Source: Candidatus Curtissbacteria bacterium
GTDB taxonomy: Bacteria; Patescibacteriota; Microgenomatia; Curtissbacterales; GWA2-41-24
Assembly (NCBI GenBank): GCA_030647775.1
Contig: JAUSJC010000010.1
Coordinates: 338,646-402,645 of the forward strand
Length of the DNA: 64,000 bases
Reading direction: 5' to 3'
The position numbers were made by a program, and so were the translations under genes. The notes beneath the pieces are model-generated. The model was given only the letters and a program-made list of their open reading frames with translations, searched no databases and was not told the DNA's origin. Below are positions 379-63,729 of the stretch, piece after piece (within the stretch, counting starts at the first letter, position 1; each line of letters starts with the position of its first letter).

Positions 379-1099
379 CGTTGTTATGGCCGTTTATAAC
401 GGCATGCCTTTAGGCTCGCAGTCGGAGACGAGGACCGCAAGCTCTGCTTATCTTAAAGACGCCATCCAAAGTATTCTTGACCAAAGTTACAAAGATTTCG
501 AATTTATCATTATCAACGACGCTTCAACTGACGGGACAGCCAATTATTTAAAGAGTCTTTCGGACAAAAGAATAAAGATCATAATAAATGAGAAAAATCT
601 TGGCCTTGCCTTGTCTCTTAACATTGGTCTCAAAGCTGCCAAAGGGGATTATGTTGCCCGCATGGACGCCGACGACATCAGCCTCCCTCAGCGTTTTGAA
701 AAACAGATTAACTTTTTTAAAGCTCACGAGGATTATATTTTAGTCGGCTCCCAGGTTATGTGGATGGATAAAAATAATAACGTGATATCTGGTTTTGATG
801 TACCGTTAAAAGATGAAGACATAAGAAAAAAACTTATCGCGAGGAATCAGTTTCATCACGCAACGGTAATGTTCAGAAGATACGATATCGAAAAACTTGG
901 CGCATATAGAAATAACCTAAATGGGGTTGAAGATTATGACCTATGGTTCAGGGTCATCAAAAAAGGGAAGGTTGCCAACCTTCCGGAAAGATTAGTCAAA
1001 AGAAGGATTCACGAAAAAGCCTTAACCCAGAAAAACCATTTTAAGACAGAACTACTAGCCCTTAAAGTCAGGATCATGAATTTAGCCACTTTGAAATGA
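350..1099 (+). CDS. GT2 family glycosyltransferase
   Basis: 'KISVVMAVYNGM...ILDQSYKDFEFIIINDASTDGT' is a GT2 N-terminal signature, and 'ARMDADDISLPQRF' is the DXD region. Start moved to the internal Met (MKASQKPKISVV) to remove overlap with the preceding gene. Confidence 0.7.
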   Translation: MKASQKPKISVVMAVYNGMPLGSQSETRTASSAYLKDAIQSILDQSYKDFEFIIINDASTDGTANYLKSLSDKRIKIIINEKNLGLALSLNIGLKAAKGDYVARMDADDISLPQRFEKQINFFKAHEDYILVGSQVMWMDKNNNVISGFDVPLKDEDIRKKLIARNQFHHATVMFRRYDIEKLGAYRNNLNGVEDYDLWFRVIKKGKVANLPERLVKRRIHEKALTQKNHFKTELLALKVRIMNLATLK

Positions 1100-3864: not shown

Positions 3865-5111
3865 ACATTCTTTTCTTAGCCAAATTCTATACGCCATTCG
3901 ACAGGGGAGGTTCGGAATGGAGTACCCATGACCTCGCCTATTTATTAACCAAAGATGGTCATAAAGTAACAATCGTTACACTAAACTATGGTGCTAAATC
4001 GCAAGAAGAAATTGACGGTATTAATATTATTAGGATTCCATTCCCAATAAAACTTAAAAATAGCAAAGGTTCAATCGCGCCATTTTGGACCAGTAACATC
4101 GTCTGGTTTATATATACCACCATTTTCTGTCTGTACCTGGCTATCAAAAATCACTACGAAATTATTCATGTTCAAAATAACGAATTTCTGCCGGCAGGGG
4201 TCATCTCGGCAAAATTTTCTGGTAAGAAAACCATGGCGACTTTCCGCGACTACCAAACCGTCTGCAGCCTTGGTTTTTGTCTTTGGCATAAAAATCAATC
4301 ATGCTCGTTTGAAGAATATTTACAAAACGATTTTGAGTTCTTTTATGATAATTATGTTGCTAATAAAAATATCCTCAAATATTACTTGTTAAAAATAGCG
4401 GTTTTAAGGGCATGGGTTATGCAAAAAATACTTTATTTTTTCGCTACCCACGTAGATTACAAAGTTGCTGTTTCCCAAAAAGTTAAAACTGTTTTCGAAA
4501 CGAATGGCATTAAAAACCTAAAAGTAATCCATAACCCAGTTATTATCGGCAACAAATTAAGCAGTTCTTACACGAACAAAATTATTTATATTGGTAAACT
4601 ATCAAAAGGTAAGGGGGTCGATATTTTTATCGAAGCCATACCCAAAATAGCATCAAGGTTTCACGATGTGTCATTTGAAATTATCGGGTCTGGGTATCTT
4701 AAAGAAAAACTGATAACCTTTGTAAGGTTGGCGGGTCTTCAGTCCAAAGTTAAGTTTGCTGGTCATCTAGGTCACGATGAAGCCCTTAAAAGGGTATCCA
4801 AGTCCGCTTTAGTAGTAGTGCCGTCCGTTTGGCCGGAACCCCTTCCAAGAAGTGTTATTGAAACGATTCTTTCCGGTACTCCGGTAGTCGCCACAAATGT
4901 TGGTGGCATAAGTGAGATTATCAAAAATAATTATTACGGAGTTTTGGCAAAACCAAGAAAGAATGACTTAGAAAAGGCAATAATTGAAGGGTTTAGTAAA
5001 AAGGATGGGCTTAGAAAAAACATTCAAGCAGATATTAATAAACTCAAAAATCATTTTTCAAAAGAAGTTTTAACGAGCTATGAGCGCCTTTATGAGGAGG
5101 CTCTTAAATGA
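3861..5111 (+). CDS. Glycosyltransferase family 4 (GT-B)
   Basis: N-term 'ILFLAKFYTPFDRGGSEWSTHDLA' (GT4 Glyco_trans_4-like). C-term 'PSVWPEPLPRSVIETILSGTPVVATNVGGISEII'. Confidence 0.7.
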   Translation: MNILFLAKFYTPFDRGGSEWSTHDLAYLLTKDGHKVTIVTLNYGAKSQEEIDGINIIRIPFPIKLKNSKGSIAPFWTSNIVWFIYTTIFCLYLAIKNHYEIIHVQNNEFLPAGVISAKFSGKKTMATFRDYQTVCSLGFCLWHKNQSCSFEEYLQNDFEFFYDNYVANKNILKYYLLKIAVLRAWVMQKILYFFATHVDYKVAVSQKVKTVFETNGIKNLKVIHNPVIIGNKLSSSYTNKIIYIGKLSKGKGVDIFIEAIPKIASRFHDVSFEIIGSGYLKEKLITFVRLAGLQSKVKFAGHLGHDEALKRVSKSALVVVPSVWPEPLPRSVIETILSGTPVVATNVGGISEIIKNNYYGVLAKPRKNDLEKAIIEGFSKKDGLRKNIQADINKLKNHFSKEVLTSYERLYEEALK

Positions 5112-9981: not shown

Positions 9982-11544
9982 ATGCGAAAAACAAAGCATT
10001 TACTAATTATTATTCTCCTTAGCCTTTCTGCTTTTTTAATTCACGGTTATCAATTTGCCGTTTCCGATCAGGAGATTTTTATTACCTACATTTTAAAATC
10101 ACAGGACCCCTCACTTTTTCAAAGTGATGCTCTTTTTAATCAAAGCTCTGCTCATCTATCCCTTTTTTATCCTGTTATTGGATTTTTAACAAAATTTGTT
10201 GATATTCAGGTAACCTTCGTTATTGGTTATCTGATCTTTCAGTTCGCGTTTTTCGTTGCGCTTTACCGTCTTTCCAGGATTTTATTAAAAGACAATGATC
10301 TTGCATACTTTTCTCTTTTACCCTTTTTACTACCAAAATTTATCGGCGGCACTGCGGCTCAAACGTTTGACTTGTTTTTTGGATACAGGTCTATTGGTGT
10401 AATCTTTCTTGTGTTCTACCTATCCTTTCTTCTGGAAAAGAAATATATAAAATCAATATTTTTTGCATCAGTAGGTTTTCTATTCCACCCCTTATCTATA
10501 ATCCCCAATATTTTGCTTTTGCCAGTCCTAGCGATACAAAGTTCCAAGTCAAGGGTTTTTGATTCATTGAAATATATTATCTTACCCATGGTAATCGGAT
10601 TGACGCTTTTTGCAATATTCGGGCAAAGCTTTACGAACAGTTCCCCCTTAAAGGATAACTTGTGGCTGTCTATTATTAGATTTCGCGATGATTACCTTTT
10701 TATCTCCAGTTGGACATTACGAGCATGGGGAGCATTTGCTCTTTATTTTTTTCTAATTGTAATCTTTTTAAAGAAAGTTCAAAAAAGTCTTATTAAGCCA
10801 ATAATTATAATTAGTTTTGTTTCTCTTATATTATTCTTAATAAACTCATTTGTTTTGGAGACACTTAAGATTCCACTGGTTGCCGAGTTCCAACTAGTCA
10901 GGTCGATCAACCCAATTGCCTACATTGGGCTAGCTCTTTCTCCTCTATTTCTAGTCCCCAAAAATTACTTCCAAAGAATCCTAGGAGGCGCGGCTTTCAT
11001 TTTTCTATGTTTGAACCTTTTCGATCTTTTTTTTGCGACGGCGATCATTTTTACTTTCTGTCTCTTACTCAACAGAAATGAAGAAAAAGTTAAGCCGCGA
11101 GTGTTTAACCCCTACGCAATTCCTGTCATCACATTTATTCTTTATATAGCCTTAAATATTCCCTCGTATTTAAATTTCCAAGAGAAGATCCAATTCCCAA
11201 AAAAGCAGGATGATTGGATAAACGTACAAAAATGGGCGAGTCAAAATACCGCTAAATCGGCTAAGTTTTTGGTACCACCCGACCAAACCGGCTTTAGGAT
11301 ATTTTCATCAAGGCCAATCGTCGGCGACATAAAAGACGGTGCCGTGGTAATTTATAGCCCGCAATACGCAATCTACTGGTCAAATCTAATGGCTGATACT
11401 GCAAATTATCAAAACTTGGAAAGCGGGGACTTTTTAGCTTTAAAACGGAAATACTCTTTCAGCTATTTTGTCACCACAGCTTTGAAAAATCTTCCGCTAG
11501 AAGTAGTATTTAAGAACAATTCTTTTATAGTATATAAGTTTTAG
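9982..11544 (+). CDS. Polytopic membrane protein, unclassified (candidate GT-C glycosyltransferase)
   Basis: About 12 predicted TM helices then a ~130-aa C-terminal soluble domain. No recognisable soluble enzyme motif. Confidence 0.45.
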   Translation: MRKTKHLLIIILLSLSAFLIHGYQFAVSDQEIFITYILKSQDPSLFQSDALFNQSSAHLSLFYPVIGFLTKFVDIQVTFVIGYLIFQFAFFVALYRLSRILLKDNDLAYFSLLPFLLPKFIGGTAAQTFDLFFGYRSIGVIFLVFYLSFLLEKKYIKSIFFASVGFLFHPLSIIPNILLLPVLAIQSSKSRVFDSLKYIILPMVIGLTLFAIFGQSFTNSSPLKDNLWLSIIRFRDDYLFISSWTLRAWGAFALYFFLIVIFLKKVQKSLIKPIIIISFVSLILFLINSFVLETLKIPLVAEFQLVRSINPIAYIGLALSPLFLVPKNYFQRILGGAAFIFLCLNLFDLFFATAIIFTFCLLLNRNEEKVKPRVFNPYAIPVITFILYIALNIPSYLNFQEKIQFPKKQDDWINVQKWASQNTAKSAKFLVPPDQTGFRIFSSRPIVGDIKDGAVVIYSPQYAIYWSNLMADTANYQNLESGDFLALKRKYSFSYFVTTALKNLPLEVVFKNNSFIVYKF

Positions 11545-28287: not shown

Positions 28288-28953
28288 ATGGAACCGGAAA
28301 TAACTCGTCTTTACAGGTTACGTTTTGATAAAGATCTTAAGAAGAGAAACGAAATTTGGAAAATTCTTTGCAGGGATTTTTTCCAAAAATACATAAAACC
28401 TTCCGATACCGTTTGCGATCTTGGCGCGGGGTATTGTGAATTCATAAACAACATTAAAGCAAAAATCAGAATTGCCATCGACATTAACCCGGAAACCAAA
28501 AAATTTGCAAACAAAGGACTAGCAACTTTAATTACCTCAAGTACCAATTTACCTAAAAATTTGTATAACAAAGTTGACGTCGTTTTTGCCAGTAATTTTT
28601 TTGAACATTTATCCACGAAAGAAGAATTGGCAAAAACGCTGGTGGAAATTAATAAAATATTAAAAACAGGCGGGAAAATTATTGTTCTTATGCCAAACAT
28701 CCGATATATTGGGGCGGCTTACTGGGATTTTTTGGATCACCAGCTTCCGTTAACGGAAAAAAGCATGGTTGAAGCCCTAACCTTAAATGGTTGCAGGATA
28801 ATAGAAAAAAGAAACAGATTTCTACCATATACGACAAAAAGTCGCTTACCGAAAATGGGATTTTTGGTTAGACTTTATTTAAAACTAACCCCACTGCATC
28901 TACTTTTTGGGAAGCAATCGTTAATCATTGCCCAAAAACTACCACTTAAATGA
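28288..28953 (+). CDS. Class I SAM-dependent methyltransferase
   Basis: Motif I 'VCDLGAGYCEF'. 'VDVVFASNFFEHL'. 'GGKIIVLMPN'. Confidence 0.6.
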   Translation: MEPEITRLYRLRFDKDLKKRNEIWKILCRDFFQKYIKPSDTVCDLGAGYCEFINNIKAKIRIAIDINPETKKFANKGLATLITSSTNLPKNLYNKVDVVFASNFFEHLSTKEELAKTLVEINKILKTGGKIIVLMPNIRYIGAAYWDFLDHQLPLTEKSMVEALTLNGCRIIEKRNRFLPYTTKSRLPKMGFLVRLYLKLTPLHLLFGKQSLIIAQKLPLK

Positions 28954-30716
28954 CTCAAGGATTTATTTCGAGCGAAAAAACTCCGGAGATGAAACGAATT
29001 TTGAGCGAAAATCAGAGAACCACAACCTTCAGGCTGTGGGGATCTATTTCTAAAAATAAATTGGTAATCTCTTTTATTTTTGCCATTACTGCGATCAGCT
29101 TTTTCTTAAGGTTATATCAATTAGGTAATGTTCCAAACGGGCTGTCAGCAGATGAAGCAGATATGGCATATAATGCTTTTTCTATTCTTAAAACCGGTAA
29201 GGATGTTTATGGAAGGCATCTTCCCATATTTTTTCAGTCTCTTGATGGTTTTGTCCCGGGTTTCGGGATATACGCGTCTATTCCGACAATTTACATATTT
29301 GGCTTAAACGATTTTGCTATTAGGCTTTTACCTGCCGCGATTGGCGCGCTTACGCCGCTTCTAATGTATTTTCTAGCTAAAATTCTTTATCCCAAGAAGA
29401 AATATTTACCTATAATTTGTGCAATTTTAACAACTTTTGCCCCTTGGAATATAGCTATTTCTAGGGCACTCTGGCTGTACATTGAACTTATTTTTTTCTA
29501 TATCTTATTTCTTATCATTTTTTTACTGGGTATTCAAAAAAATTTTAAATTAATTATTTTAAGTGCATTAGTGCTCGTTTTGACTCAATATATTTATCTT
29601 GCGGCAATTCTTTATCTTCCGCTAATAGTTATTACTGTCACAATTATTTATAGAAAAAACTTTTCCAAAAATTTAAAAATAAGTCTTCTGGCATTATCTT
29701 TATTAATTATTTTATCTTTACCGAGTATTGTTTACTACTTAAATCAAAGCTCAAGGGGACGATTAAACTCGATTTCGATTTTTCAGAATGATGTAACGCT
29801 TCCGATATCAATATCAGAAAAGCAACAGGATATTAAAAATAACGATAACTTTAGTGCTTTATTGCATAATCGCAGACTGGTATATTTAATCGATTCGGTA
29901 GAAAACTATTTCAAATACATAAATTTTAGTGCCCTTTTCGTTAATAGTAGTGGTATTCGGCTGTTTTATGTAAACTACGTTGGATTATTTTATCTTATTG
30001 AACTGCCTTTTTTCCTATTTGGATTCTTATATCTTATAAATGATATTAGGAAAGAGCACAATCTTCTTGTCGCAAGTTTATTTCTGATCGGGCCCATACC
30101 CGCTATATTTATACTCGGAGCCACTTTTTTTCATAGATCTATTTTATTTTTACTGGCAATTCAAATTATTTCAGCAGTCGGGATTAACAATTTTTATGAA
30201 CAAATAAAGAAAACTAAAGTTAAATATTGGTTACATATTGTTATCTTTCTTGTCCTTGTGTATATGTCAAGCATATATTTCTTTTTGCACCAGTATTTTA
30301 TCCATTCACCAAACGAGTTTACTTCTGAAGATGATAATGGGGCGTGGTTTTCTACGGTAAAAAATGCTATTCCAATAGTTAATGAAAATAAAACAAAATA
30401 CGAGAAAATAGTTTTCACTTGGTCTAAGAGCAAACTTATTCCCCCCGTTTACTTTCTTTTTTACAACAAAGTTGATCCTTCTGTAATGCAAAAAAAGGCT
30501 TCCGGTTGGACGAACGAACCGCCCTCTTATAAACAGATCTACAATCAAATTGACAATATTGAATTTAGGTCAATTAACTGGCTTCAAGACAAAAATCTCA
30601 AAAGCGCTCTTTTTATTGGGTACCCGAGCGATTTTCCGGAGGACGTAAAAAACGTAGTTGCAAAAACGTATCTGCCAAACGGCGAGGTTCATTTTCTTGT
30701 TGTTAAAAATCCCTAA
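28950..30716 (+). CDS. PMT_2/ArnT-like (GT83/GT39-type) membrane glycosyltransferase
   Basis: 'FFLRLYQLGNVPNGLSADEADMAYNAFS' is a textbook first-loop motif. 12+ TM helices plus a C-terminal periplasmic domain. The first ~30 codons overlap repeat copy C, so the real start may be downstream. Confidence 0.6.
   Translation: MTQGFISSEKTPEMKRILSENQRTTTFRLWGSISKNKLVISFIFAITAISFFLRLYQLGNVPNGLSADEADMAYNAFSILKTGKDVYGRHLPIFFQSLDGFVPGFGIYASIPTIYIFGLNDFAIRLLPAAIGALTPLLMYFLAKILYPKKKYLPIICAILTTFAPWNIAISRALWLYIELIFFYILFLIIFLLGIQKNFKLIILSALVLVLTQYIYLAAILYLPLIVITVTIIYRKNFSKNLKISLLALSLLIILSLPSIVYYLNQSSRGRLNSISIFQNDVTLPISISEKQQDIKNNDNFSALLHNRRLVYLIDSVENYFKYINFSALFVNSSGIRLFYVNYVGLFYLIELPFFLFGFLYLINDIRKEHNLLVASLFLIGPIPAIFILGATFFHRSILFLLAIQIISAVGINNFYEQIKKTKVKYWLHIVIFLVLVYMSSIYFFLHQYFIHSPNEFTSEDDNGAWFSTVKNAIPIVNENKTKYEKIVFTWSKSKLIPPVYFLFYNKVDPSVMQKKASGWTNEPPSYKQIYNQIDNIEFRSINWLQDKNLKSALFIGYPSDFPEDVKNVVAKTYLPNGEVHFLVVKNP
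28965..29049 (+). repeat. Junction repeat element, copy C (long form)
   Basis: TTTCGAGCGAAAAAACTCCGGAGATGAAACGAATTTTGAGCGAAAATCAGAGAACCACAACCTTCAGGCTGTGGGGATCTATTT. Confidence 0.8.
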
Positions 30717-56824: not shown

Positions 56825-58105
56825 TCATTTCAGACATTGTTGATACCAAGTGAAACAAACATTGTAATTCTTTTCCGGGAACCAAAAACCTATTGCCTCT
56901 CCTGTCCCCAAAGCATAGTAAGCATCAAGAGAAGTTGAAATTCCATTATCACCTAAAATAAGCCTTGTACCAGGAGGGGGATTATCCGTTTCTATTTTTG
57001 TTAAATATATTTTTGCTAAATCGCTTCTTTTGATAACCCAACTGTTCTCTTGTAAAGTAACAACACCGAAAGCGTTAACTACAACAATTGCCATGATTAA
57101 AAGATAAGCGACATATTTAGGGGTTTGAGCAAGTGTTAGGCCGATGAGCATTGCCAGTCCCCATAAAGAAATATTCATGTAGTGGGGTGAAAGGTGGTTT
57201 GGAATTAAAACAAATGGGAGAAGGCCAATAAATATTACGAAAGCCGCGAAGATAAAAATTCTCTTGTCCGCTTTTTTCATAAGTTCGTGTGTGGTAAATA
57301 CACCGACTGTCAAAAGCCATAGCGCCAGCACCCCCGAAAGGATATTTAAATCTGTGCCCTCAACAAAACCGGGGATTCTCAAAAGATAATACTTCAAAGC
57401 TGTCAAAATACTTGGCGAAATTTCGATCTTGTAGGCATCAACCGCTGCGCTCGGAAACAAAAAGACAAGTTGGATGAAAGCAAAAATCGCGGAAACTACG
57501 CCGGTCAAAATTATCGGTTTTCCGATTCTCAACTTCCCACTTTCCAAAAAGTCCCATGCCAAAAATATTCCCGCACCGATAACCATTGCCTCGGATGCTA
57601 GTAGCGAAGTGATAAATAAGCCTACAGAAAGGGCAAACTTTTTTGAGAGGTAAAAATAAAATGAGGCAATTAAAAATGTAAAGCCGATTAATGTTGCCCC
57701 GCCGGAAATCCAATAAAGTGAAACAAAGTGTACGGGGGAGATTAAATAAAACACGGCAGAGCAAATTGCCGTTAGCCTATTTCTGGTGATTTTTATCATG
57801 GTTTTATAAATCAAAAAACCGCCGGTGATATGGATAATGAAAGTCAGAAGGTGATAGCCGAAATAATTTTTGCCAAATAGGCTATCACTTACAAAAAAGT
57901 AAAGGTTATGGATTGGCCGCCAGTGGGTGACGGTTGGTGCCCCAAAAACATTCCTTAAATTCGTTAAGAATCCATTTTGAGAAAAATGATTGATTAAAAT
58001 AAAATCATCCTGGGCAAAGAAATTGAAAAACGATTTATAAAAAACAAGTGCGCCGCCAGCCGCCAAAAGCAGAAAAACTAAAATATCTTTCCTCACTGTT
58101 TCCAT
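56825..58105 (-). CDS. Polytopic membrane protein, unclassified (possible GT-C glycosyltransferase)
   Basis: About 11 TM helices. 'KSFFNFFAQDDFILINHF' acidic first-loop motif after TM1. C-terminal ~60-aa soluble tail. Confidence 0.45.
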   Translation of the reverse strand: METVRKDILVFLLLAAGGALVFYKSFFNFFAQDDFILINHFSQNGFLTNLRNVFGAPTVTHWRPIHNLYFFVSDSLFGKNYFGYHLLTFIIHITGGFLIYKTMIKITRNRLTAICSAVFYLISPVHFVSLYWISGGATLIGFTFLIASFYFYLSKKFALSVGLFITSLLASEAMVIGAGIFLAWDFLESGKLRIGKPIILTGVVSAIFAFIQLVFLFPSAAVDAYKIEISPSILTALKYYLLRIPGFVEGTDLNILSGVLALWLLTVGVFTTHELMKKADKRIFIFAAFVIFIGLLPFVLIPNHLSPHYMNISLWGLAMLIGLTLAQTPKYVAYLLIMAIVVVNAFGVVTLQENSWVIKRSDLAKIYLTKIETDNPPPGTRLILGDNGISTSLDAYYALGTGEAIGFWFPEKNYNVCFTWYQQCLK

Positions 58106-58118
58106 TTTAGCACCTGCG

Positions 58119-59723
58119 TTGTCGCTAGGGACTTGCCCTATATATAATAGGGAAGTGAGATTATTAAAAATCCTGCTTGTAACCGCCTTCCTAAATGCCC
58201 TAGTCTGGATTATTATTGTTCCCGTCTGGCAATACCCCGACGAGCAAGCCCATTTTGCCCAGGTTCAATATTTGGCGGAAAACGGCAGGACACTTCACGA
58301 CAGCAAGGCCTTCGATACTTCTTACGAAATAGCTCTGTCAGAAAAAATTCTTGGGACTGAAAGGGACATAGGCGGTAATAACAAATTCATTTACCATCCT
58401 GAATTTAAAATCGGCTATTCTAAAACTTTAACTGGACCAAATGAGGGAAAAATTGCCAATTTACCCAAATCCGCCCGCTCTCGATTCGTAAAAAATGAGG
58501 CCACCCAAAATCCGCCGCTTTACTATTACCTTGGATCGGTTGTCAACAAGATATTCTCTTTTGGCGACCTTTTTACAAGGGTTTATGCCATAAGGGTAAT
58601 GTCAGCACTTATTTTTACTGGAACAATAATAGTTGCTTACAAAATAGGCGGGTTGATATTTGCCGGAGAAATTTTACCCCTGACGTTAGCAGCTATTATC
58701 GCATTCAAGCCAATGCTGGTTTTTTCTTCAACAGGCGTTTTACCGGATACCCTAACTAATTTTCTGTTCAGCCTTTTTATATTTTTATCTCTTAAAATAA
58801 TCAAATTTGGCATCTCGCCATCTAAAATTTTGGCCGTCTTGTTAATTATCGCGGCTGGCGCCGCGACTCGACAAAATTTTCTAATTACCCTGTTCATTTT
58901 CCCTTTGGTAATTTTACATCAATTAATCTTCAATAAAAAATCAAGACAGAAAGTAGTCTTTTTAATTATTTTCTGCGGTTTTCTGCTTTATGCGGCGAGC
59001 TTTTTCATTCCCGGAATGGATTTTATTCACCGCTTTGATTTCCCTGAATCCACAAGCCATAACCAATCGAACCCGCTGTTCCATATGGGGTTTGTTGACC
59101 ACTTTAAGTGGACGCTAAACCATACATTTAGGGAGGTTTGGCCTTGGTATTGGGGAATTTATAAATGGTTATCACTTCCTCTGCCTCACATAATTTACCA
59201 AATCATAAATAGGCTAACCCTTTTGTCGCTAGTTGGGCTTATTGTTTGGACAGTCCAACTAGCGAGAAGAAGGGAAGCGAAAAAAGAAATCCCGCTGATT
59301 TTTACTGTATCCACCGCTGTCATTTACTTCATGATGATAACTGTTTTCGACTATTTTTTTAGAAAAAATAATGGCTATTCTTTCGGTATTCAGGGGAGAT
59401 ATTTTTTCCCGGTAGTAATTCCCCAAATGGCAATCCTTTTAACCGGTTTTTGGGTCTTATTTGTTGTAATTCTTAGAAAATACGCAAGAATCGGAATTTT
59501 TATTATTTTAATTCTGGTCTTCATTTTTAATTCCATTTCGCTATTCGTCGTAGCTTCTTCGTATTACGATACCGGCAATTTACAAACGTTTATTAGGGAG
59601 GCGAGCCAATATAAACCATTAATTTTTAAAGGCAATATTATTATTTTAGTAATAGTTCTTTCCTTTGTCTCACAACTCTTTTTCCTCTTTAACTACGTAA
59701 GGGATATAATAAAAGAAAAATGA
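58119..59723 (+). CDS. DUF2142-like polytopic membrane protein (putative GT-C glycosyltransferase)
   Basis: 'IIVPVWQYPDEQAHFAQVQY' resembles the DUF2142 N-terminal P-D-E..H motif. 12+ TM helices. Confidence 0.45.
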   Translation: MSLGTCPIYNREVRLLKILLVTAFLNALVWIIIVPVWQYPDEQAHFAQVQYLAENGRTLHDSKAFDTSYEIALSEKILGTERDIGGNNKFIYHPEFKIGYSKTLTGPNEGKIANLPKSARSRFVKNEATQNPPLYYYLGSVVNKIFSFGDLFTRVYAIRVMSALIFTGTIIVAYKIGGLIFAGEILPLTLAAIIAFKPMLVFSSTGVLPDTLTNFLFSLFIFLSLKIIKFGISPSKILAVLLIIAAGAATRQNFLITLFIFPLVILHQLIFNKKSRQKVVFLIIFCGFLLYAASFFIPGMDFIHRFDFPESTSHNQSNPLFHMGFVDHFKWTLNHTFREVWPWYWGIYKWLSLPLPHIIYQIINRLTLLSLVGLIVWTVQLARRREAKKEIPLIFTVSTAVIYFMMITVFDYFFRKNNGYSFGIQGRYFFPVVIPQMAILLTGFWVLFVVILRKYARIGIFIILILVFIFNSISLFVVASSYYDTGNLQTFIREASQYKPLIFKGNIIILVIVLSFVSQLFFLFNYVRDIIKEK

Positions 59724-60274
59724 AGGCACTTGATGAAATCGGCGGCAAAAAAACCATAAGATTTATTCTCTTTGCCTTGGCGCAGGTTATCTATCATCGC
59801 CTTATCCTGCATTTATTTTTCTTCCCGCCGGCAAGAAAACTCTTCCTGCAGATTTTAGGAGCAAAAGTTGGCAAAAACTCAATTCTTATGGAAGTTAAAT
59901 TTTTCAACTGGTATCATCGTGGTCCATCCGGCCTTAAGATCGGCAATGATTGTTTTATTGGCGATGAAACCCTAATCGATCTCTACGATGAGGTCGTTTT
60001 GGAAAATCAGGTAACACTTGCCCCGAGGGTGACGGTTCTAACCCACATGAATGTCGGTTACAGCGACCATCCGCTTCAAAAAGCGTTCCCAAAAATGTCC
60101 AAGCCGGTTATTTTCAAAAGTGGTTGCGTCGTTGGTGCCGCCAGTACCATCCTGCCGGGGATCACGATTGGCGAAGGATCTTTTGTCGCTGCTGGCAGCG
60201 TAGTTACTAAAGATGTTCCTTCCGGTTGTCTTTACGCCGGTAACCCCGCAAAGCTTCTTAGGAAAATTAAGTAA
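59720..60274 (+). CDS. Hexapeptide-repeat (LbH) sugar O-acetyltransferase (WcaF/Mac-like)
   Basis: 'IGNDCFIGDETLIDLYDEVVLENQVTLAPRVTVLTH' and 'GCVVGAASTILPGITIGEGSFVAAGSVVTKDVPSGCLYAGNPAK' are LbH repeats with the C-terminal NPAK tail. Confidence 0.7.
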   Translation: MKALDEIGGKKTIRFILFALAQVIYHRLILHLFFFPPARKLFLQILGAKVGKNSILMEVKFFNWYHRGPSGLKIGNDCFIGDETLIDLYDEVVLENQVTLAPRVTVLTHMNVGYSDHPLQKAFPKMSKPVIFKSGCVVGAASTILPGITIGEGSFVAAGSVVTKDVPSGCLYAGNPAKLLRKIK

Positions 60275-60276
60275 AG

Positions 60277-60834
60277 ATGTGTCTCTATAACAAGTTAAGA
60301 TATCTAATATTGCCTATCAGGCAAATAGATAGCGCTCTACCGTCAAGTGGCCAAATCGTCGACCTTGGCTGTGGTCAGGGTATCCTGGCCGCTTATCTGG
60401 CGAGGAGAAAAGAGCGCAATGTCATAGGCGTAGATCTCGACGCAGCTAGGTTGCCAAACAAAGAGTTGGCAAACCTTAAATTTATAAAGGCCGATATCAC
60501 TAAATACAATCTAAAAAACGTCGACGGTATTGTCATTTCCGACGTCCTTCACCATATAAGCCGTGTCGACCAAAGTGAACTTCTTGCCAAAATCGCCAAA
60601 GGTTTAAAGAGAGGGGGTATCCTTGTTATCAAAGAAATAGATTCGAAAGAATTTATCAGAAGCAAGCTTACCAGGCTCTGGGATTTTATTCTCTACCCCC
60701 ATGATGAAATTTCTTTCTCGAATTCCCAAACACTCACGCGAAATCTAAAAAGGTTAGGTTTTAATGTTAACGTCCAAAGGGTGGTTACATGGTTTCCCGG
60801 CTCAACCACTCTCTACATATGTACAAAAAGATAA
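60277..60834 (+). CDS. Class I SAM-dependent methyltransferase
   Basis: Motif I 'IVDLGCGQGILAAYLA'. 'GIVISDVLHHI'. 'GGILVIKE'. Confidence 0.6.
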   Translation: MCLYNKLRYLILPIRQIDSALPSSGQIVDLGCGQGILAAYLARRKERNVIGVDLDAARLPNKELANLKFIKADITKYNLKNVDGIVISDVLHHISRVDQSELLAKIAKGLKRGGILVIKEIDSKEFIRSKLTRLWDFILYPHDEISFSNSQTLTRNLKRLGFNVNVQRVVTWFPGSTTLYICTKR

Positions 60835-62465
60835 GCAGAGCTTTTCCGCGAATAAGCGAAGCTTTTCTACGAATAAGCAGAGCTTTTCTACGAATAAGCA
60901 GAGCTTTTCTACGAATAAGCAGAGCTTTTCATCAAATAATAAAATTTTGGCCAATTGCTACTCTTCTTTTAATAACCCTTATTTCAAGAATCATAAATTT
61001 AGAAAAACTTTTCTATTTTACCTACGATGAATCAATCCCGGCTTTTGTCGGCCGCCGCCTCATTCTTTGGTATCACATTCCCTTAATCGGCGGCGCCACG
61101 CCGTTTGGTTTTCACCTTGGCCCTTATTTTTACTGGTTTTACGCCGCGCTTCTTGCCGTCGGCCGTCTTAACCCGCTTGTCTGGGGATATGCCGCTACAG
61201 TCATTTCAGTATTTACTACCTTATTAATGTATATTGTCGGCAAGAACTTCGGCGGCAAAAAAGTCGGTATTACCGCGGCAGTGTTCTGGACGTTTTCGTA
61301 CCTTGCTAATATCTACGACCGCCATCTCTGGGCGCTTTTCTGGGGCCCGCTAACTAGCCTTTTAGTTTTGTTTTTCTTAGAAAAAATAATTTCCGGCCGT
61401 CAAAAATTCATTTATCTGCTTGCCTTAACAATTGGTCTTTCCATTCATGCCGATCCGTCGAATATTATCTTTGTCATTCTTGCCGTTTTTGCTTTCGCCT
61501 ACTGGAAGGTGTCTATCAAGAAGAATCTATCGATTCTTTTTGCGGCCATTATTCTTTTTACCCTTCCGCTTGTTGCTTTTGACCTTCGCCACGATTTTGC
61601 CAATATCCGCCCGACTGCAGGTTTCATCAAGGCCGGCGCAAACACCCCGGCAATCCGTACCCAAAAATTCGTTACCAATTCGCTTCTGTTCCCGCAGGCG
61701 GCAACACGCCTTGTCTATACTTTTGGGGATAACCAAGTTGCTAAACAGTATTCCTATTGCAAAAACTTCGTCGCCGAAAAGTTTGCCGCCACTGCTCAAA
61801 TCTTTGTTTTCTTATCCGCCTTTGCCATTCTTGCTTTCATCCTCTGGTCTTTCAAAAACCGCCAAAGTTTATGGTTTCTTGTTTCCAGTTTATTGTTGCT
61901 CTACTTCCTCGGCATCCAAATTTATGGCACGATTCTCGGCGGTGACATTTTTGAGCACTACATCACTGGCCTTTTCCCGGCGTTTTTACTAATTACCGCC
62001 TTTTTTGTAAGCAAATTACCCAAAAAACTTTGGCTTGTTGCCCTTGGCATTTTTGTCGCCGCCAATCTTTATAAATTATCGCTTGCTCAAAACAGTCAGG
62101 GGCTGACCGAAAAAAGAGAAGCAATTGAATATACAATGCGGCAGGTGGGGGATAAACCATTTTCGCTTGACTCCCTGTCAACCTGCTGGAAGTTGAATGG
62201 CTACCGCTATCTTTTTGCCGTTTACGGTAGGGAGCCGGTCAAAAGTTATGTCGACCCAAATTTTGCCTACCTTTATGGTACTACCCCGGTCTGGGATCAT
62301 CATCCGGCGACTGTCGTCGCCTTTGTGGTTCACGACTACGCCCCCGAAACTCAAGCCTTTTACCAACGCTACGCCCTTTTAAAATCCCACCAAATTTCCT
62401 CATCCAAATTTGGCTCCATTGAGGTAATCGTAATGGATAACTCAACAGGCTGGTTTGATAAATAG
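60819..62465 (+). CDS. PMT_2/ArnT-like polytopic membrane glycosyltransferase with N-terminal 7-aa tandem-repeat tail
   Basis: 'FYFTYDESIPAFVGRRLILWYHIPLIGGATPFGFHLGPYFYW' first-loop motif. Start assumed at 'MYKKISRAF' (16-nt overlap with the MTase). N-terminus holds (ISRAFLR)x4 encoded by a 21-bp tandem repeat. Confidence 0.55.
   Translation: MYKKISRAFPRISEAFLRISRAFLRISRAFLRISRAFHQIIKFWPIATLLLITLISRIINLEKLFYFTYDESIPAFVGRRLILWYHIPLIGGATPFGFHLGPYFYWFYAALLAVGRLNPLVWGYAATVISVFTTLLMYIVGKNFGGKKVGITAAVFWTFSYLANIYDRHLWALFWGPLTSLLVLFFLEKIISGRQKFIYLLALTIGLSIHADPSNIIFVILAVFAFAYWKVSIKKNLSILFAAIILFTLPLVAFDLRHDFANIRPTAGFIKAGANTPAIRTQKFVTNSLLFPQAATRLVYTFGDNQVAKQYSYCKNFVAEKFAATAQIFVFLSAFAILAFILWSFKNRQSLWFLVSSLLLLYFLGIQIYGTILGGDIFEHYITGLFPAFLLITAFFVSKLPKKLWLVALGIFVAANLYKLSLAQNSQGLTEKREAIEYTMRQVGDKPFSLDSLSTCWKLNGYRYLFAVYGREPVKSYVDPNFAYLYGTTPVWDHHPATVVAFVVHDYAPETQAFYQRYALLKSHQISSSKFGSIEVIVMDNSTGWFDK
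60831..60935 (+). repeat. Tandem repeat, 21-bp unit x5 (ATAAGCAGAGCTTTTCTACGA consensus; first and last units degenerate)
   Basis: Direct reading: 60831-60851, 60852-60872, 60873-60893, 60894-60914, 60915-60935. Units 3 and 4 are identical. Confidence 0.85.
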
Positions 62466-62505
62466 CGTTGTAACCCTAAAACCACTAAACTATACTTAAA
62501 TTCAA

Positions 62506-63729
62506 ATGCCAAAACGGCTCCTTAATTTGCTTTATACAGACACTGGCCGCGACACTTCTATTGTCTTTATCGGTACACTTATGAACGTAGTCGCGGGCGG
62601 TTTATTCTTCATCTTTGTCCCGCGGCTTTTAGGTCCCGCCAACTATGGTCTTTTCTCCGTTGTTATCTCTACGTGTATTATGGTTGCAGCAATTGCTAAT
62701 TTTGGACTAGATACAGGAATATTGCGCTTTGCCAAAAAAGAAAATACGCTGCTTGGTTTTGCTTTTAAATCTTATCTACTGCTAGGTTTGGCAACTGCAG
62801 TTCTGGGGTTTATTGCTGCTCCTTATATCGCACAACTTTTGGGCTATATTGAAGTTACCGCTCTGCTTCGGATCGGTTTTATTGGAGTTATTTTTATCCT
62901 GCTGACAAATTTTTTTGTGGCAGCTCTTCAAAGCAGGGGAGAATTCAAAAAAGCATCCATTGTTAATATTTCGTCGAACCTTTCGCGTCTTCTAATCCTG
63001 GCTATTGCTTATTATTTCTTTACTGTTAATTTAACTTTCTTAACTGCCCTCTTTTTTCTTATTACGGCAGTATCTGTCGTCATTGGAGCCGTTTATCAAC
63101 CAATCAGTTTTAAAAAAACTACGCAAAATAAAAAAGAATTTTTTAAATACAACTTCTGGATCGCGTCTGCGCTTATTATTTCTTCAGTCCCTTTCGACAG
63201 CTTCATTCTTCTTAAACTTGCCGGTCCCGTAGCAACCGGCCTCTATGCCGCCCCATTCAAGATTCTAACCTTTGCCTATCAATTCGGCGGTAATTTCACA
63301 AGAGTCTTGTCCAGCCGTTATTCAAGCTTCGATACTGCTGATAAGGCCATAAAGTTTTCAAAAAAATCCTTAGCGTTTCCGTTGGTCTTTTCCGCAGGAC
63401 TGGCATTTTTAGTTCTGTTGGCACCTTTCATAACAATTCTTTTTGGAGAGAACTTCGGCCCGGCCATCCCAGTTATGAGAATTCTCTCCGTAGGTTTTAT
63501 ATTCTTTTTCATCTCGACCATTCCCTCGTCCATTATTCTTTACTACTTGGGAAAATCAAACGTTTCTTTCTGGATCACGGTTATTCGCTATCTAGTGTTT
63601 ATAATCCTTCTTATTACCCTTGTTCCCCGGTTGCAAGCCATCGGGGGTGCCTGGGCGTTTACAATCACCGAGCTGATATCACTCGTTCTAATGTCGGCAT
63701 ATGCAATCTACAAGTTGCAAGCAAAATGA
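62506..63729 (+). CDS. Wzx-like oligosaccharide flippase (MOP superfamily, polysaccharide biosynthesis protein family)
   Basis: 407 aa, 12+ TM helices. N-term 'IVFIGTLMNVVAGGLFFIFVPRLLGPANYGLFSVVIS' is typical of Wzx/Polysacc_synt proteins. Confidence 0.6.
   Translation: MPKRLLNLLYTDTGRDTSIVFIGTLMNVVAGGLFFIFVPRLLGPANYGLFSVVISTCIMVAAIANFGLDTGILRFAKKENTLLGFAFKSYLLLGLATAVLGFIAAPYIAQLLGYIEVTALLRIGFIGVIFILLTNFFVAALQSRGEFKKASIVNISSNLSRLLILAIAYYFFTVNLTFLTALFFLITAVSVVIGAVYQPISFKKTTQNKKEFFKYNFWIASALIISSVPFDSFILLKLAGPVATGLYAAPFKILTFAYQFGGNFTRVLSSRYSSFDTADKAIKFSKKSLAFPLVFSAGLAFLVLLAPFITILFGENFGPAIPVMRILSVGFIFFFISTIPSSIILYYLGKSNVSFWITVIRYLVFIILLITLVPRLQAIGGAWAFTITELISLVLMSAYAIYKLQAK

Follow-up and report, generated by a model that had tools for sequence, protein, structure and literature searches.

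Pneumococcal BOX elements are modular, with a tandemly iterated middle module (boxB), and cyanobacterial STRR are dispersed short tandem heptamers. Both are essentially intergenic, and neither is known to insert in frame into essential genes. In-frame VNTR or contingency loci of the classical kind are built from locus-specific units, usually in exposed surface domains. MIRU (Supply et al. 1997, summarised in PMC3184786) are G+C-rich elements of 40-100 bp with internal inverted repeats that lie intergenically within operons; they occupy tens of loci per genome, and comparisons of empty with filled sites reveal tetranucleotide direct repeats. RPE are described (Ogata et al. 2000, reviewed in PMC10969869) as single palindromic elements of about 100-150 bp with one conserved peptide. 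The BrickBuilt MITE of Porphyromonas gingivalis consists of 23-nt tandem units without spacers, with a leader and a tail, at about 19 per genome (PMC4596501).

Here, we analyzed a 64,000-nt stretch of Candidatus Curtissbacteria DNA (the window, meaning the whole stretch at its full length), in which five head-to-tail 21-nt units start four codons into a membrane glycosyltransferase gene (Table 1). The unit belongs to a family dispersed among CPR bacteria. A literature search for the 21-nt element returned comparators only and no description. Our best reading is that the family is a dispersed, frame-neutral minisatellite of the MIRU, RPE or BrickBuilt kind.

The CPR element shares with MIRU (PMC3184786) minisatellite-like units, tandem arrays of variable copy number, many dispersed loci and a tetranucleotide direct repeat (ATAA) in the empty/filled comparison. 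Like MIRU at polycistron gene junctions, which overlap ORF ends, the window array gives the upstream gene its stop and enters the downstream gene (PMC3184786), but this position is found in only 6 of the 111 CPR arrays and does not define the family. Unlike MIRU, the CPR unit measures 21 nt, has no detectable inverted repeat, comes from an unrelated phylum and is intragenic in about half of the cases, including positions deep in housekeeping genes. With RPE (PMC10969869), it shares in-frame insertion into many unrelated functional genes and the addition of a tolerated peptide; unlike RPE, it is a tandem, non-palindromic 21-nt unit read in at least four frames and present in variable copy number. 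BrickBuilt resembles the CPR element in its dispersed, tandem, spacer-less short units and, at some sites of the latter, in extra modules (hairpins B and C), whereas BrickBuilt occurs only between genes, ends in inverted repeats and has a period that is not a multiple of three (PMC4596501). The CPR element, by contrast, frequently lies within genes and frequently lacks such modules, as the array in the window does, and the terminal inverted repeats that mark a MITE were not found in it.

BOX and STRR are alike to the CPR element as dispersed modular or short tandem families, with a different unit length and sequence. The REP/RAYT system pairs a hairpin-forming unit with a cognate Y1 (RAYT) transposase; the CPR unit has no significant fold. 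Classical VNTRs and the CPR array have in common that copy number changes in frame, without frameshift, and that slippage is the likely route of growth. Unlike classical VNTR units, the CPR unit is common to more than 100 loci, and the tail it encodes here is predicted to be cytoplasmic.

The array, its host gene and the encoded tail

TRF reported the array at 60831-60930 (period 21, 4.8 copies, 92% matches, score 172) as by far the strongest in the window, and a separate repeat search returned five copies at a spacing of 21. At up to three mismatches, the unit occurs five times in the window, each time within the array (0 expected from shuffles). Units 3 and 4 match each other at every position; compared with them, units 1 and 2 each differ at two positions and unit 5 at three, and a 71-nt stretch is perfectly periodic. 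An earlier note on this DNA had described the five units at the 5' end of the gene, the identical central and degenerate outer units and a 16-nt overlap with the upstream methyltransferase, all of which we confirmed. Units 3 and 4 are most likely the part of the array made by recent slippage.

Table 1. Coordinates of features in the window.
Feature	Position	Strand	Evidence or content
Second family member, 42 nt	410..451	-	unit head ATAAGCAGAGCTT fused to hairpin module GCGGTCCTCGTCTCCGACTGCGAGCCTAA
SAM-dependent methyltransferase, upstream	60277..60834	+	Pfam Methyltransf_23/25/11
Host gene, 548-aa membrane glycosyltransferase with predicted GT-C fold	60819..62465	+	AF2, Foldseek
Five-unit 21-nt array, consensus ATAAGCARAGCTTTTCTNCGA	60831..60935	+	TRF, repeat finding, pattern search
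Unit 1	60831..60851		
Unit 2	60852..60872		
Unit 3	60873..60893		
Unit 4	60894..60914		
Unit 5	60915..60935		
Identical units 3 and 4	60873..60914	+	sequence comparison; independent assembly breaks here
ATAA after last unit	60936..60939	+	empty/filled comparison of L002, L001 and the window
TM1, about residues 41-59	60939..60995	+	hydropathy
Y69-D70-E71	61023..61031	+	invariant columns, 53-sequence alignment

The independent Logan assembly of run SRR13727527 contains the same flanks and units 1, 2 and 5, but its contigs break inside the identical central units, so the count of five rests on the MAG assembler. Exact look-ups of neighbouring proteins, made in search of same-species strains, led to this one other assembly only. 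No inverted repeats were found in 60700-61100. The array RNA folded no better than shuffles (z=+0.59), and we dropped a structured-RNA reading for this reason; Rfam gave no match for the window and nine loci at gathering thresholds, nor for the array at E<=1. A CRISPR array is ruled out, as the units stand head-to-tail with no spacers.

In the frame of the host gene, the array reads ISRAFPR ISEAFLR ISRAFLR ISRAFLR ISRAFHQ, that is, 35 residues of the form (ISRAFLR)x5 at codons 5-39; as had been proposed, the unit preserves the frame and each copy adds 7 aa to the N-terminal tail. The overlap results from the host ATG at 60819 and the methyltransferase stop TAA at 60832-60834, and is the same in the empty locus L002. 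This stop lies inside unit 1 and is provided by its opening ATAA, so the C-terminus of the methyltransferase is unaltered by the insertion. No in-frame ATG, GTG or TTG occurs within the array or from the array to TM1, and the MYKK start is kept in orthologues; with these starts, the sequence indicates that the array must be translated as part of the host protein. Neither of the two orthologous loci read has an equivalent of the upstream ATG at 60789. The alternative (SFSTNKQ)n frame, described earlier as interrupted by the flanking genes, belongs here to one 88-aa ORF only (60764..61030), but at other sites of the family it is coding more often than any other frame.

The host protein is 100% identical to NCBI Q7S45_04480 from Candidatus Curtissbacteria. 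On the basis of its AF2 model (pLDDT 86.2, pTM 0.87), it is predicted to have a multi-span N-terminal membrane domain with a GT-C fold: all 28 PDB chains matched by Foldseek at E<=0.001 are GT-C enzymes, and matches include AglB, PglB and STT3 (E ~1e-7), ArnT (TM 0.54) and ALG9/ALG12 (TM 0.58). Pfam, searched up to E<=10, returned no family for the protein, and a PDB profile search with its sequence gave no GT-C match, so the fold is identified from the predicted structure alone. The assignment to GT-C glycosyltransferases in the earlier note is thus borne out by the predicted structure, but its narrower label, ArnT/PMT_2-like, finds no support in the sequence, which gave no significant family-HMM match to PMT_2/GT39/ArnT (GT83). 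Of 120 orthologues, just 3 have a precomputed PF13231 match; NCBI names one GT39.

AF2 predicts a single helix over residues 2-58, in which the repeat-encoded helix is continuous with TM1 (pLDDT 78-85). Both hydropathy and AF2 place Y69-D70-E71, which is invariant in 53 orthologues, directly after TM1. It matches the acidic motif that GT-C enzymes are expected to carry in their first extracytoplasmic loop, with a putative catalytic role. For the topology, we assume the arrangement of known ArnT, PglB and PMT, with the Y-D-E loop outside and the N-terminus cytoplasmic. The residues before TM1 include 10 K/R versus 1 E; from this bias and from the place of the Y-D-E motif after TM1, the tail is expected to be cytoplasmic, as had been anticipated. 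With the array, the pre-TM1 tail grows from 8 residues (MYKKIIKF) to 43, with a hydrophobic moment of 0.75-0.85, maximal at 102.9 degrees, the angle of a heptad, and a net charge of about +9. Because the strongly amphipathic, Arg-rich helix obeys the positive-inside rule, the orientation of TM1 would be kept and the enzyme would stay intact. The tail peptide is most likely a tolerated and, we infer, neutral passenger, not a designed module.

Insertion site, boundaries and modules

The repeat is absent in 118 of 119 orthologues, which start MYKKIIKFWP-like, and orthologue P0007 has exactly one unit; the repeat is not a conserved domain, the possibility that the earlier note had set against its own reading. 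At the empty site of L002, AAAAAG is followed directly by ATAATAAAATTTTGG, with a single ATAA. L001 carries one unit inserted at the same nucleotide as the five units of the window, and comparison of the three places an insert of n x 21 nt between two ATAA. In the window, the ATAA that opens unit 1 and the one after the last unit form a 4-nt direct repeat around the insert. Orthologues at 74-87% identity, none of them from a same-species genome, have five, one or no units. In an NJ tree, the two filled genes fall into separate clades with empty genes between them, which implies that units were either gained more than once at the same site or precisely lost more than once. P0002, the closest orthologue, differs at its N-terminus owing to a paralogue upstream and is uninformative on the insertion site.

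Arrays are bounded by ATAA: on both sides at this site, the only one with comparable empty and filled DNA, and at most right ends across the family. Among 61 unforced arrays, the right end is exactly ATAA in 27 and 33 close with at least 4 nt of a further unit; a partial unit, cut off after its first four bases, would account for the ATAA bounds equally well. The longest string shared by the array flanks has a median of 7 nt versus 6 in controls; long target-site duplications are not general, the exceptions being L091 (20 nt) and L104 (16 nt). As we found no transposase, no terminal inverted repeats and no clear target duplication beyond ATAA, we infer mobility from the distribution only.

The unit contains no start codon on either strand and a stop in one plus frame only, although the CTACGA variant also stops one minus frame. 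A candidate hairpin within the unit (GCAGA...TCTGC) was dropped, since it is present in one variant only and the other variants, read by eye, do not compensate. The family also includes hairpin modules B and C, which are combined with units in some copies; module B has no copy in the window. The window's other family member is in frame within the GT2 gene 386..1099, close to its start, as MAVYNGMP[LGSQSETRTASSAY]LKDAIQ, and the Pfam GT2 match begins only past the insert. The same GT2 site in L006/L127 has one more unit and a longer hairpin. A weak match at 10143-10155 looks like chance. The "junction element" to which the array had been compared was not identified, and nothing notable lies around 57800-58500.

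The dispersed family

A 27-nt unit pattern matched 106 metagenome and 44 genome stretches with unrelated flanks. The hosts are about 150 metagenome/MAG contigs of Curtissbacteria, Daviesbacteria and other CPR bacteria, with up to five sites per MAG and a density of roughly 1-2 sites per 100 kb; a scan of viral_contigs for the unit gave 0 matches. Arrays of one to seven copies occupy at least 111 unrelated sites in both orientations, also in intergenic DNA; the 111 non-redundant arrays catalogued have one to six full units. The pattern fixes 23 of 27 bases, so the census is biased, and the near-identity of the unit across genomes whose proteins are only 45-80% identical is partly a matter of construction.

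Nearly half of the arrays (54/111) lie in ORFs of at least 150 aa, in four reading frames: KQSFSxN (35), SQKSSAY (9), RRKALLI (8) and ISRAFLR (2). The ISRAFLR frame is thus rare and is confined to protein termini, and the same DNA gives unrelated peptides in other proteins. Array-bearing genes include those for a class I tRNA synthetase, LepA, ribosomal protein L1 and RseP, and Pfam domains that span or flank arrays are those of class I aaRS, LepA, L1, UDP-glucose dehydrogenase, PMM and M50 protease. In 18 of the 54 coding cases the array lies within 15 aa of the start, and 30 arrays are deep inside genes.

Homologues show exact gaps at array positions, and copy number differs at shared sites. 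L057 has five units where L074 has two and three further loci have none; L019 has two and L045 one, at 88% identity; and L107 has three, opposite an exact 21-aa gap in a window gene. Identical unit pairs make up 40% of pairs within arrays versus 8% between arrays.

Origin and significance

We consider it probable that a dispersed, non-coding minisatellite element of 21 nt, which populates Curtissbacteria, Daviesbacteria and related CPR bacteria, gave rise to the tract by insertion. One or more units would have landed at the ATAA four codons into the GT-C gene. As this ATAA holds the methyltransferase stop codon, the insert would have regenerated the stop. The array would then have grown to five by replication slippage or unequal exchange, which would explain the identity of units 3 and 4. 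Mobility would be the means of spread and slippage the means of growth, and the lack of starts, the few stops and a length that is a multiple of three mean that arrays can persist inside genes.

A bolder form of this explanation seems less likely than not: that the unit, or its 17-nt core GCARAGCTTTTCTNCGA targeting and duplicating ATAA, is trans-mobilised and actively spreading, which would place it among the smallest mobile DNAs known. The unit sequence would then have evolved to be translation-neutral, with no starts, almost no stops, a 3n length and a polar peptide in the favoured frame; arrays could also grow, beside slippage, by re-insertion into the ATAA regenerated each time; and hairpin modules B and C may be the parts recognised by the mobilising enzyme. 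If so, the essential genes of tiny CPR genomes would be colonised and new peptide segments continually made.

A purely local contingency locus, in which a native 21-bp sequence expanded by slipped-strand mispairing and tail length serves as an adaptive switch, would fit the identical central and degenerate edge units, the in-frame array, the single orthologue with one unit among others with none and the greater likeness of units within than between arrays. As the sole explanation, however, local expansion is contradicted by the dispersed copies: the 21-mer is not confined to this locus but occurs at 150 others, and its unrelated sites number 111 or more, with other frames, other orientations and intergenic positions among them, so it is not native to this gene. 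The tail is also absent in nearly all orthologues and so unneeded for enzyme function, and no same-species copy-number difference is on record at this locus, where the only other assembly breaks in the array. We regard this origin as quite unlikely. The slipped-strand expansion in the earlier note thus agrees with the central units, but the unit is not private and did not arise by slippage alone, and a dedicated length-variation switch is not indicated. It also appears unlikely that the 21-mer is a selected DNA or RNA motif, for example a site for a regulator or a nucleoid, uptake or partition protein, with arrays that tune expression and the peptide as a side effect. In its favour are a 21-bp spacing equal to two helical turns, the many arrays at gene starts or between genes, the few that supply an upstream stop, and the near-identity of the unit among genomes with diverged proteins, which could reflect a sequence-specific function. 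The arrays deep inside genes, the often empty orthologous sites, the erratic copy number and the unstructured array RNA without Rfam match speak against it, and the search pattern itself partly imposes the conservation of the unit.

We give very little weight to the view that the amphipathic Arg-rich heptad helix is an adaptive module, such as an in-plane membrane anchor, a coiled-coil dimerisation arm or a lipid-carrier docking arm. Its very high hydrophobic moment and net charge, the long AF2 helix running into TM1 and the restriction of the rare ISRAFLR frame to termini are suggestive, but all of the closest orthologues are among those without the tail, the same DNA encodes unrelated peptides elsewhere, and the rarity of the frame is expected from purifying selection against a hydrophobic cationic peptide. 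Least credible is an assembly or binning artefact, that is, a collapsed, expanded or chimeric repeat. The contig breaks in the SRR13727527 assembly and the perfect periodicity would be expected of one, yet the independent assembly has the same flanks and edge units, the ORF is intact, and the family appears in coherent gene contexts in assemblies of many unrelated projects.

The genomes of CPR bacteria are very small and gene-dense, and are regarded as streamlined. With insertion of a dispersed element as the preferred reading, a repeat family that lies in frame in tRNA synthetases, L1, LepA and many membrane glycosyltransferases shows that CPR bacteria have a source of genome plasticity and protein-length variation that had gone unrecognised. 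The family also accounts for recurrent contig breaks in short-read assemblies and offers ready VNTR markers for strain typing in metagenomes. For annotation, the CPR heptad "domains" ISRAFLR, KQSFSTN, RRKALLI and SQKSSAY are translations of one DNA element, and the Arg-rich tail of the GT-C gene should not be taken as a conserved, functional feature of the enzyme family.

The array and the protein that it extends

Tandem Repeats Finder detected a period of 21 nt (4.8 copies, 92% matches, score 172) as the single standout array of the 64-kb window, and a repeat search placed five unit copies at 21-nt spacing. Units 3 and 4 are identical; compared with them, units 1, 2, and 5 show 2, 2, and 3 mismatches. 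The 16-nt overlap between the host gene and the upstream methyltransferase gene, claimed by an earlier note, was borne out by the positions of the start and stop codons. Because no in-frame ATG, GTG, or TTG occurs inside the array or from the array to the first transmembrane helix (TM1), the array is predicted to be translated, as ISRAFPR-ISEAFLR-ISRAFLR-ISRAFLR-ISRAFHQ. At this locus, the alternative (SFSTNKQ)n frame is confined to a spurious 88-aa ORF.

Coordinates of the array, its neighbors, and related features (window positions unless a locus fetched from another contig or genome, L, is named)
Feature	Position	Strand	Detail
Second family member	410-451	-	42 nt; unit head ATAAGCAGAGCTT plus hairpin (module C)
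GT2 gene	386..1099		Carries 410-451 in frame near its start
Gene with array-site gap	28950..30716		Exact 21-aa gap
Upstream methyltransferase	60277..60834		Pfam Methyltransf_23/25/11
Methyltransferase stop	60832-60834		TAA, within unit 1
ORF containing the host start	60789..62465		ATG at 60819
Host gene	60819..62465		548 aa
Array	60831-60935		60831-60930 in Tandem Repeats Finder
Glycosyltransferase-rich segments	56825-63729; 28950-30716		DUF2142, weak PMT matches, GT-C fold
GT-C paralogue	L153 1439-3016		31% identical
16-nt target duplication	L104 ~851-872		Spans 5' part of tRNA gene
20-nt target duplication	L091 ~4435-4560		Spans ribosome-binding site and start codon

The host product is identical to the NCBI hypothetical protein Q7S45_04480 [Candidatus Curtissbacteria bacterium], from a 527-kb contig. 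It has no Pfam match even at E ≤ 10, and a profile of 53 orthologues found no relative among PDB sequences. The AlphaFold2 model from the same alignment was confident (pLDDT 86.2, pTM 0.87), and all 28 of its 28 Foldseek matches in the PDB at E ≤ 0.001 are GT-C glycosyltransferases (AglB, PglB, STT3, ArnT, ALG9/12, PMT, Emb/Aft), which supports a GT-C fold for the modelled protein. Specific ArnT or PMT_2 membership, as the description of the gene as 'ArnT/PMT_2-like' would suggest, is unsupported.

Y69-D70-E71 is invariant among the 53 aligned orthologues and matches the acidic motif that GT-C enzymes have in their first loop; its position immediately after TM1 implies a cytoplasmic N-terminus. 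The first 40 residues hold 10 K/R and 1 E, versus 3 K in the ancestral MYKKIIKF, the hydrophobic moment of the tail is 0.75-0.85 with its peak at the heptad angle, and AlphaFold2 models residues 2-58 as a single helix. The array adds length and positive charge to a tail predicted to be cytoplasmic, as the positive-inside rule allows, and keeps all invariant residues intact. Many membrane glycosyltransferase-like genes lie in two segments of the window, together with an acetyltransferase, a methyltransferase, and a Wzx-like flippase, in a gene order that recurs in L001, L002, and L155. The locus around the host gene looks like a conserved Curtissbacteria surface-glycan operon.

Empty sites, filled sites, and a dispersed family

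Among orthologues at 55-87% identity, 118 of 119 have short N-termini such as MYKKIIKFWPIA, without an array; the orthologue P0007 (MYQK-ISKAFLR-ITKFWPI) carries exactly one unit. At the DNA level, L002 has an empty site (ATGTACAAAAAG-ATAA-TAAAATTTTGG), into which one 21-nt unit is inserted in L001 and five in the window, at the identical nucleotide and with otherwise the same arrangement. ATAA borders the insert on both sides in both filled loci. Because the unit begins with ATAA, the insertion restores the stop codon of the methyltransferase and does not alter the C-terminus of that protein. The two filled genes fall into separate clades of a neighbor-joining tree, with empty genes between them, which indicates either two hits on one nucleotide or at least three precise losses. 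In the genome of P0002, the closest orthologue, a GT-C paralogue intervenes between methyltransferase and orthologue, which is why P0002 and P0003-like proteins have another N-terminus (MGDLV...). Two further orthologues, P0023 and P0119, have other N-terminal extensions with a common ...GILRANIK(F/Y)WP, which may be left over from another insertion at that position.

A 27-nt search pattern of 1.3 units (ATAAGCNNAGCTTTTCNNCGAATAAGC) matched exactly in 106 metagenome contig stretches (Rifle, Hainich, and other groundwater or sediment projects) and 44 stretches of species-representative genomes. The matching genomes are titled Candidatus Curtissbacteria, Candidatus Daviesbacteria, or Patescibacteria, with one Saccharimonadales and one Berkelbacteria, and several MAGs (binchicken TPA assemblies) are titled 'uncultured Gammaproteobacteria bacterium' (L109, L112-L116, L119-L121, L123, L132, L140, L142, L145, L146, L148, L150). 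These last titles look wrong, since in at least L123 and L145 the proteins are 82-89% identical to those of Curtissbacteria-titled loci. The non-redundant set comprises 111 arrays of 1-6 full units, with unrelated flanks among loci and at most five loci per MAG. Flanking DNA unselected for arrays (795 kb) held 13 more sites, about 1.6 per 100 kb, and the viral contigs searched gave no match. Short heptamer-like tandem repeats (GTGAATAGTGATTAGTG..., GTGATAAGTGAAAAGTG...) adjoin arrays at L091/L149, L030, L026/L051, and L024/L079; genomes with such repeats may hold more dispersed short-repeat families.

Insertion sites and composite forms

ORFs of at least 150 aa contain 54 of the 111 arrays: 30 internally, 18 no more than 15 residues from the start, 2 close to the stop, and 4 ambiguously. 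The frames used are KQSFSxN (35 arrays) and ISRAFLR (2) on the plus strand, and SQKSSAY (9) and RRKALLI (8) on the minus strand. Arrays are spanned or flanked by the Pfam domains of class I aminoacyl-tRNA synthetase, LepA, ribosomal protein L1, UDP-glucose dehydrogenase, phosphomannomutase, and the M50 (RseP) protease. In the fetched loci, homologues have exact gaps and differing unit counts at array sites: 5 units in L057, 2 in L074, and none in L005, L006, and L111 at one site; 2 in L019, 1 in L045 (88% identity), and none in L132 at another; and SQKSSAY ×3 in L107 where a window gene has its gap. The unit lacks ATG, GTG, and TTG on both strands, with stops in one plus frame only (TAA) and, in the CTACGA variant, also in one minus frame.

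In the 61 arrays whose right flank the pattern does not dictate, the right end is exactly ATAA in 27 and at least 4 nt of an additional unit in 33; left ends mostly show 0-1 nt of a preceding unit. Longer duplications at array flanks are rare. Direct target duplications surround the insertions in L104 and L091, and none of comparable length was found at the other 90 sites checked.

Two recurrent modules follow arrays at other loci. Module B (AACCTGAGCTTCGCTCAGAACCTTGATTCTCGC..GCTCGAATT) occurs in L003, L037, L045, L081, L097, and L122. Module C, in L006, L037, L050, L075, L088, L091, L094, L097, L103, L116, and L123, consists of a unit head ATAAGCARAGCTT followed by GCGGTCCTC, a self-complementary core that varies, and CTGCGGGCCTAA. 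Its arms are conserved (CTTGCGGTCCTC ... CTGCGGGCCTAA), and the core differs between loci both in sequence and in length (30-75 nt). This core stays self-complementary throughout, and the change that separates L050 from L123 improves pairing, which suggests that module C may be a selected hairpin. The second family member in the window reads MAVYNGMP[LGSQSETRTASSAY]LKDAIQ in the GT2 gene, whose Pfam match begins only past the insert; at the equivalent site, L006 and L127 have one extra 21-nt unit and a longer hairpin.

Origin of the family

The earlier note read the array as a recent expansion by slippage; a purely local contingency locus is one rival explanation. Allowing up to 3 mismatches gave exactly 5 unit matches in the window, all within the array, and 0 in 100 shuffles. 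Identical unit pairs make up 40% within arrays and 8% between arrays, and some arrays consist of two alternating variants, as expected if slippage moves one or two units at a time. Spread by mobility is what we infer from the distribution, the recurrent hit on one nucleotide, and the near-identical units across divergent genomes. The analysis found no mobilizing enzyme, terminal inverted repeats, or unambiguous target duplication for the element. As for an artefact, the copy number of five comes from one assembly; an independent short-read Logan assembly of the same population (SRR13727527) matches the window in flanks and edge units, and its contigs (L155 end, L157 start) break exactly within the identical central units. 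Arrays of this kind are likely to be where contigs of CPR assemblies repeatedly end.

The 21-mer might instead be a functional DNA motif, or its peptide adaptive. Concerning the motif, 23 of the 27 bases in the search pattern are fixed, which in part builds in the apparent invariance of most unit positions; positions 8 (A/G) and 18 (A/G/T), which the pattern leaves free, vary among units. The array RNA has no significant structure (z = +0.59) and no Rfam match. Concerning the peptide, the window frame is amphipathic and cationic, whereas the commonest coding frame gives a polar, non-amphipathic one; elsewhere ISRAFLR is limited to extreme termini, for example the N-terminus of a methyltransferase (L088) and the C-terminus of a recombinase (L082). 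Selection on tolerated peptides would produce such a pattern of frame usage.

The closest known kinds are MIRUs, dispersed minisatellites with tetranucleotide direct repeats and ends that overlap neighboring genes (PMC3184786), RPEs, found inserted in frame in many genes (PMC10969869), and BrickBuilt, a 23-nt minisatellite inside a MITE that always lies between genes (PMC4596501). The element of CPR bacteria differs from all of these in its hosts and in its 21-nt, non-palindromic unit, which is read in several frames and is frequent within essential genes. Literature searches on the unit sequence and on CPR or Curtissbacteria repeats returned no description of the element. The simplest account is that the family is a dispersed, non-autonomous minisatellite element, which would seed at ATAA sites, grow and shrink through slippage, and be retained by selection where its peptide is harmless.
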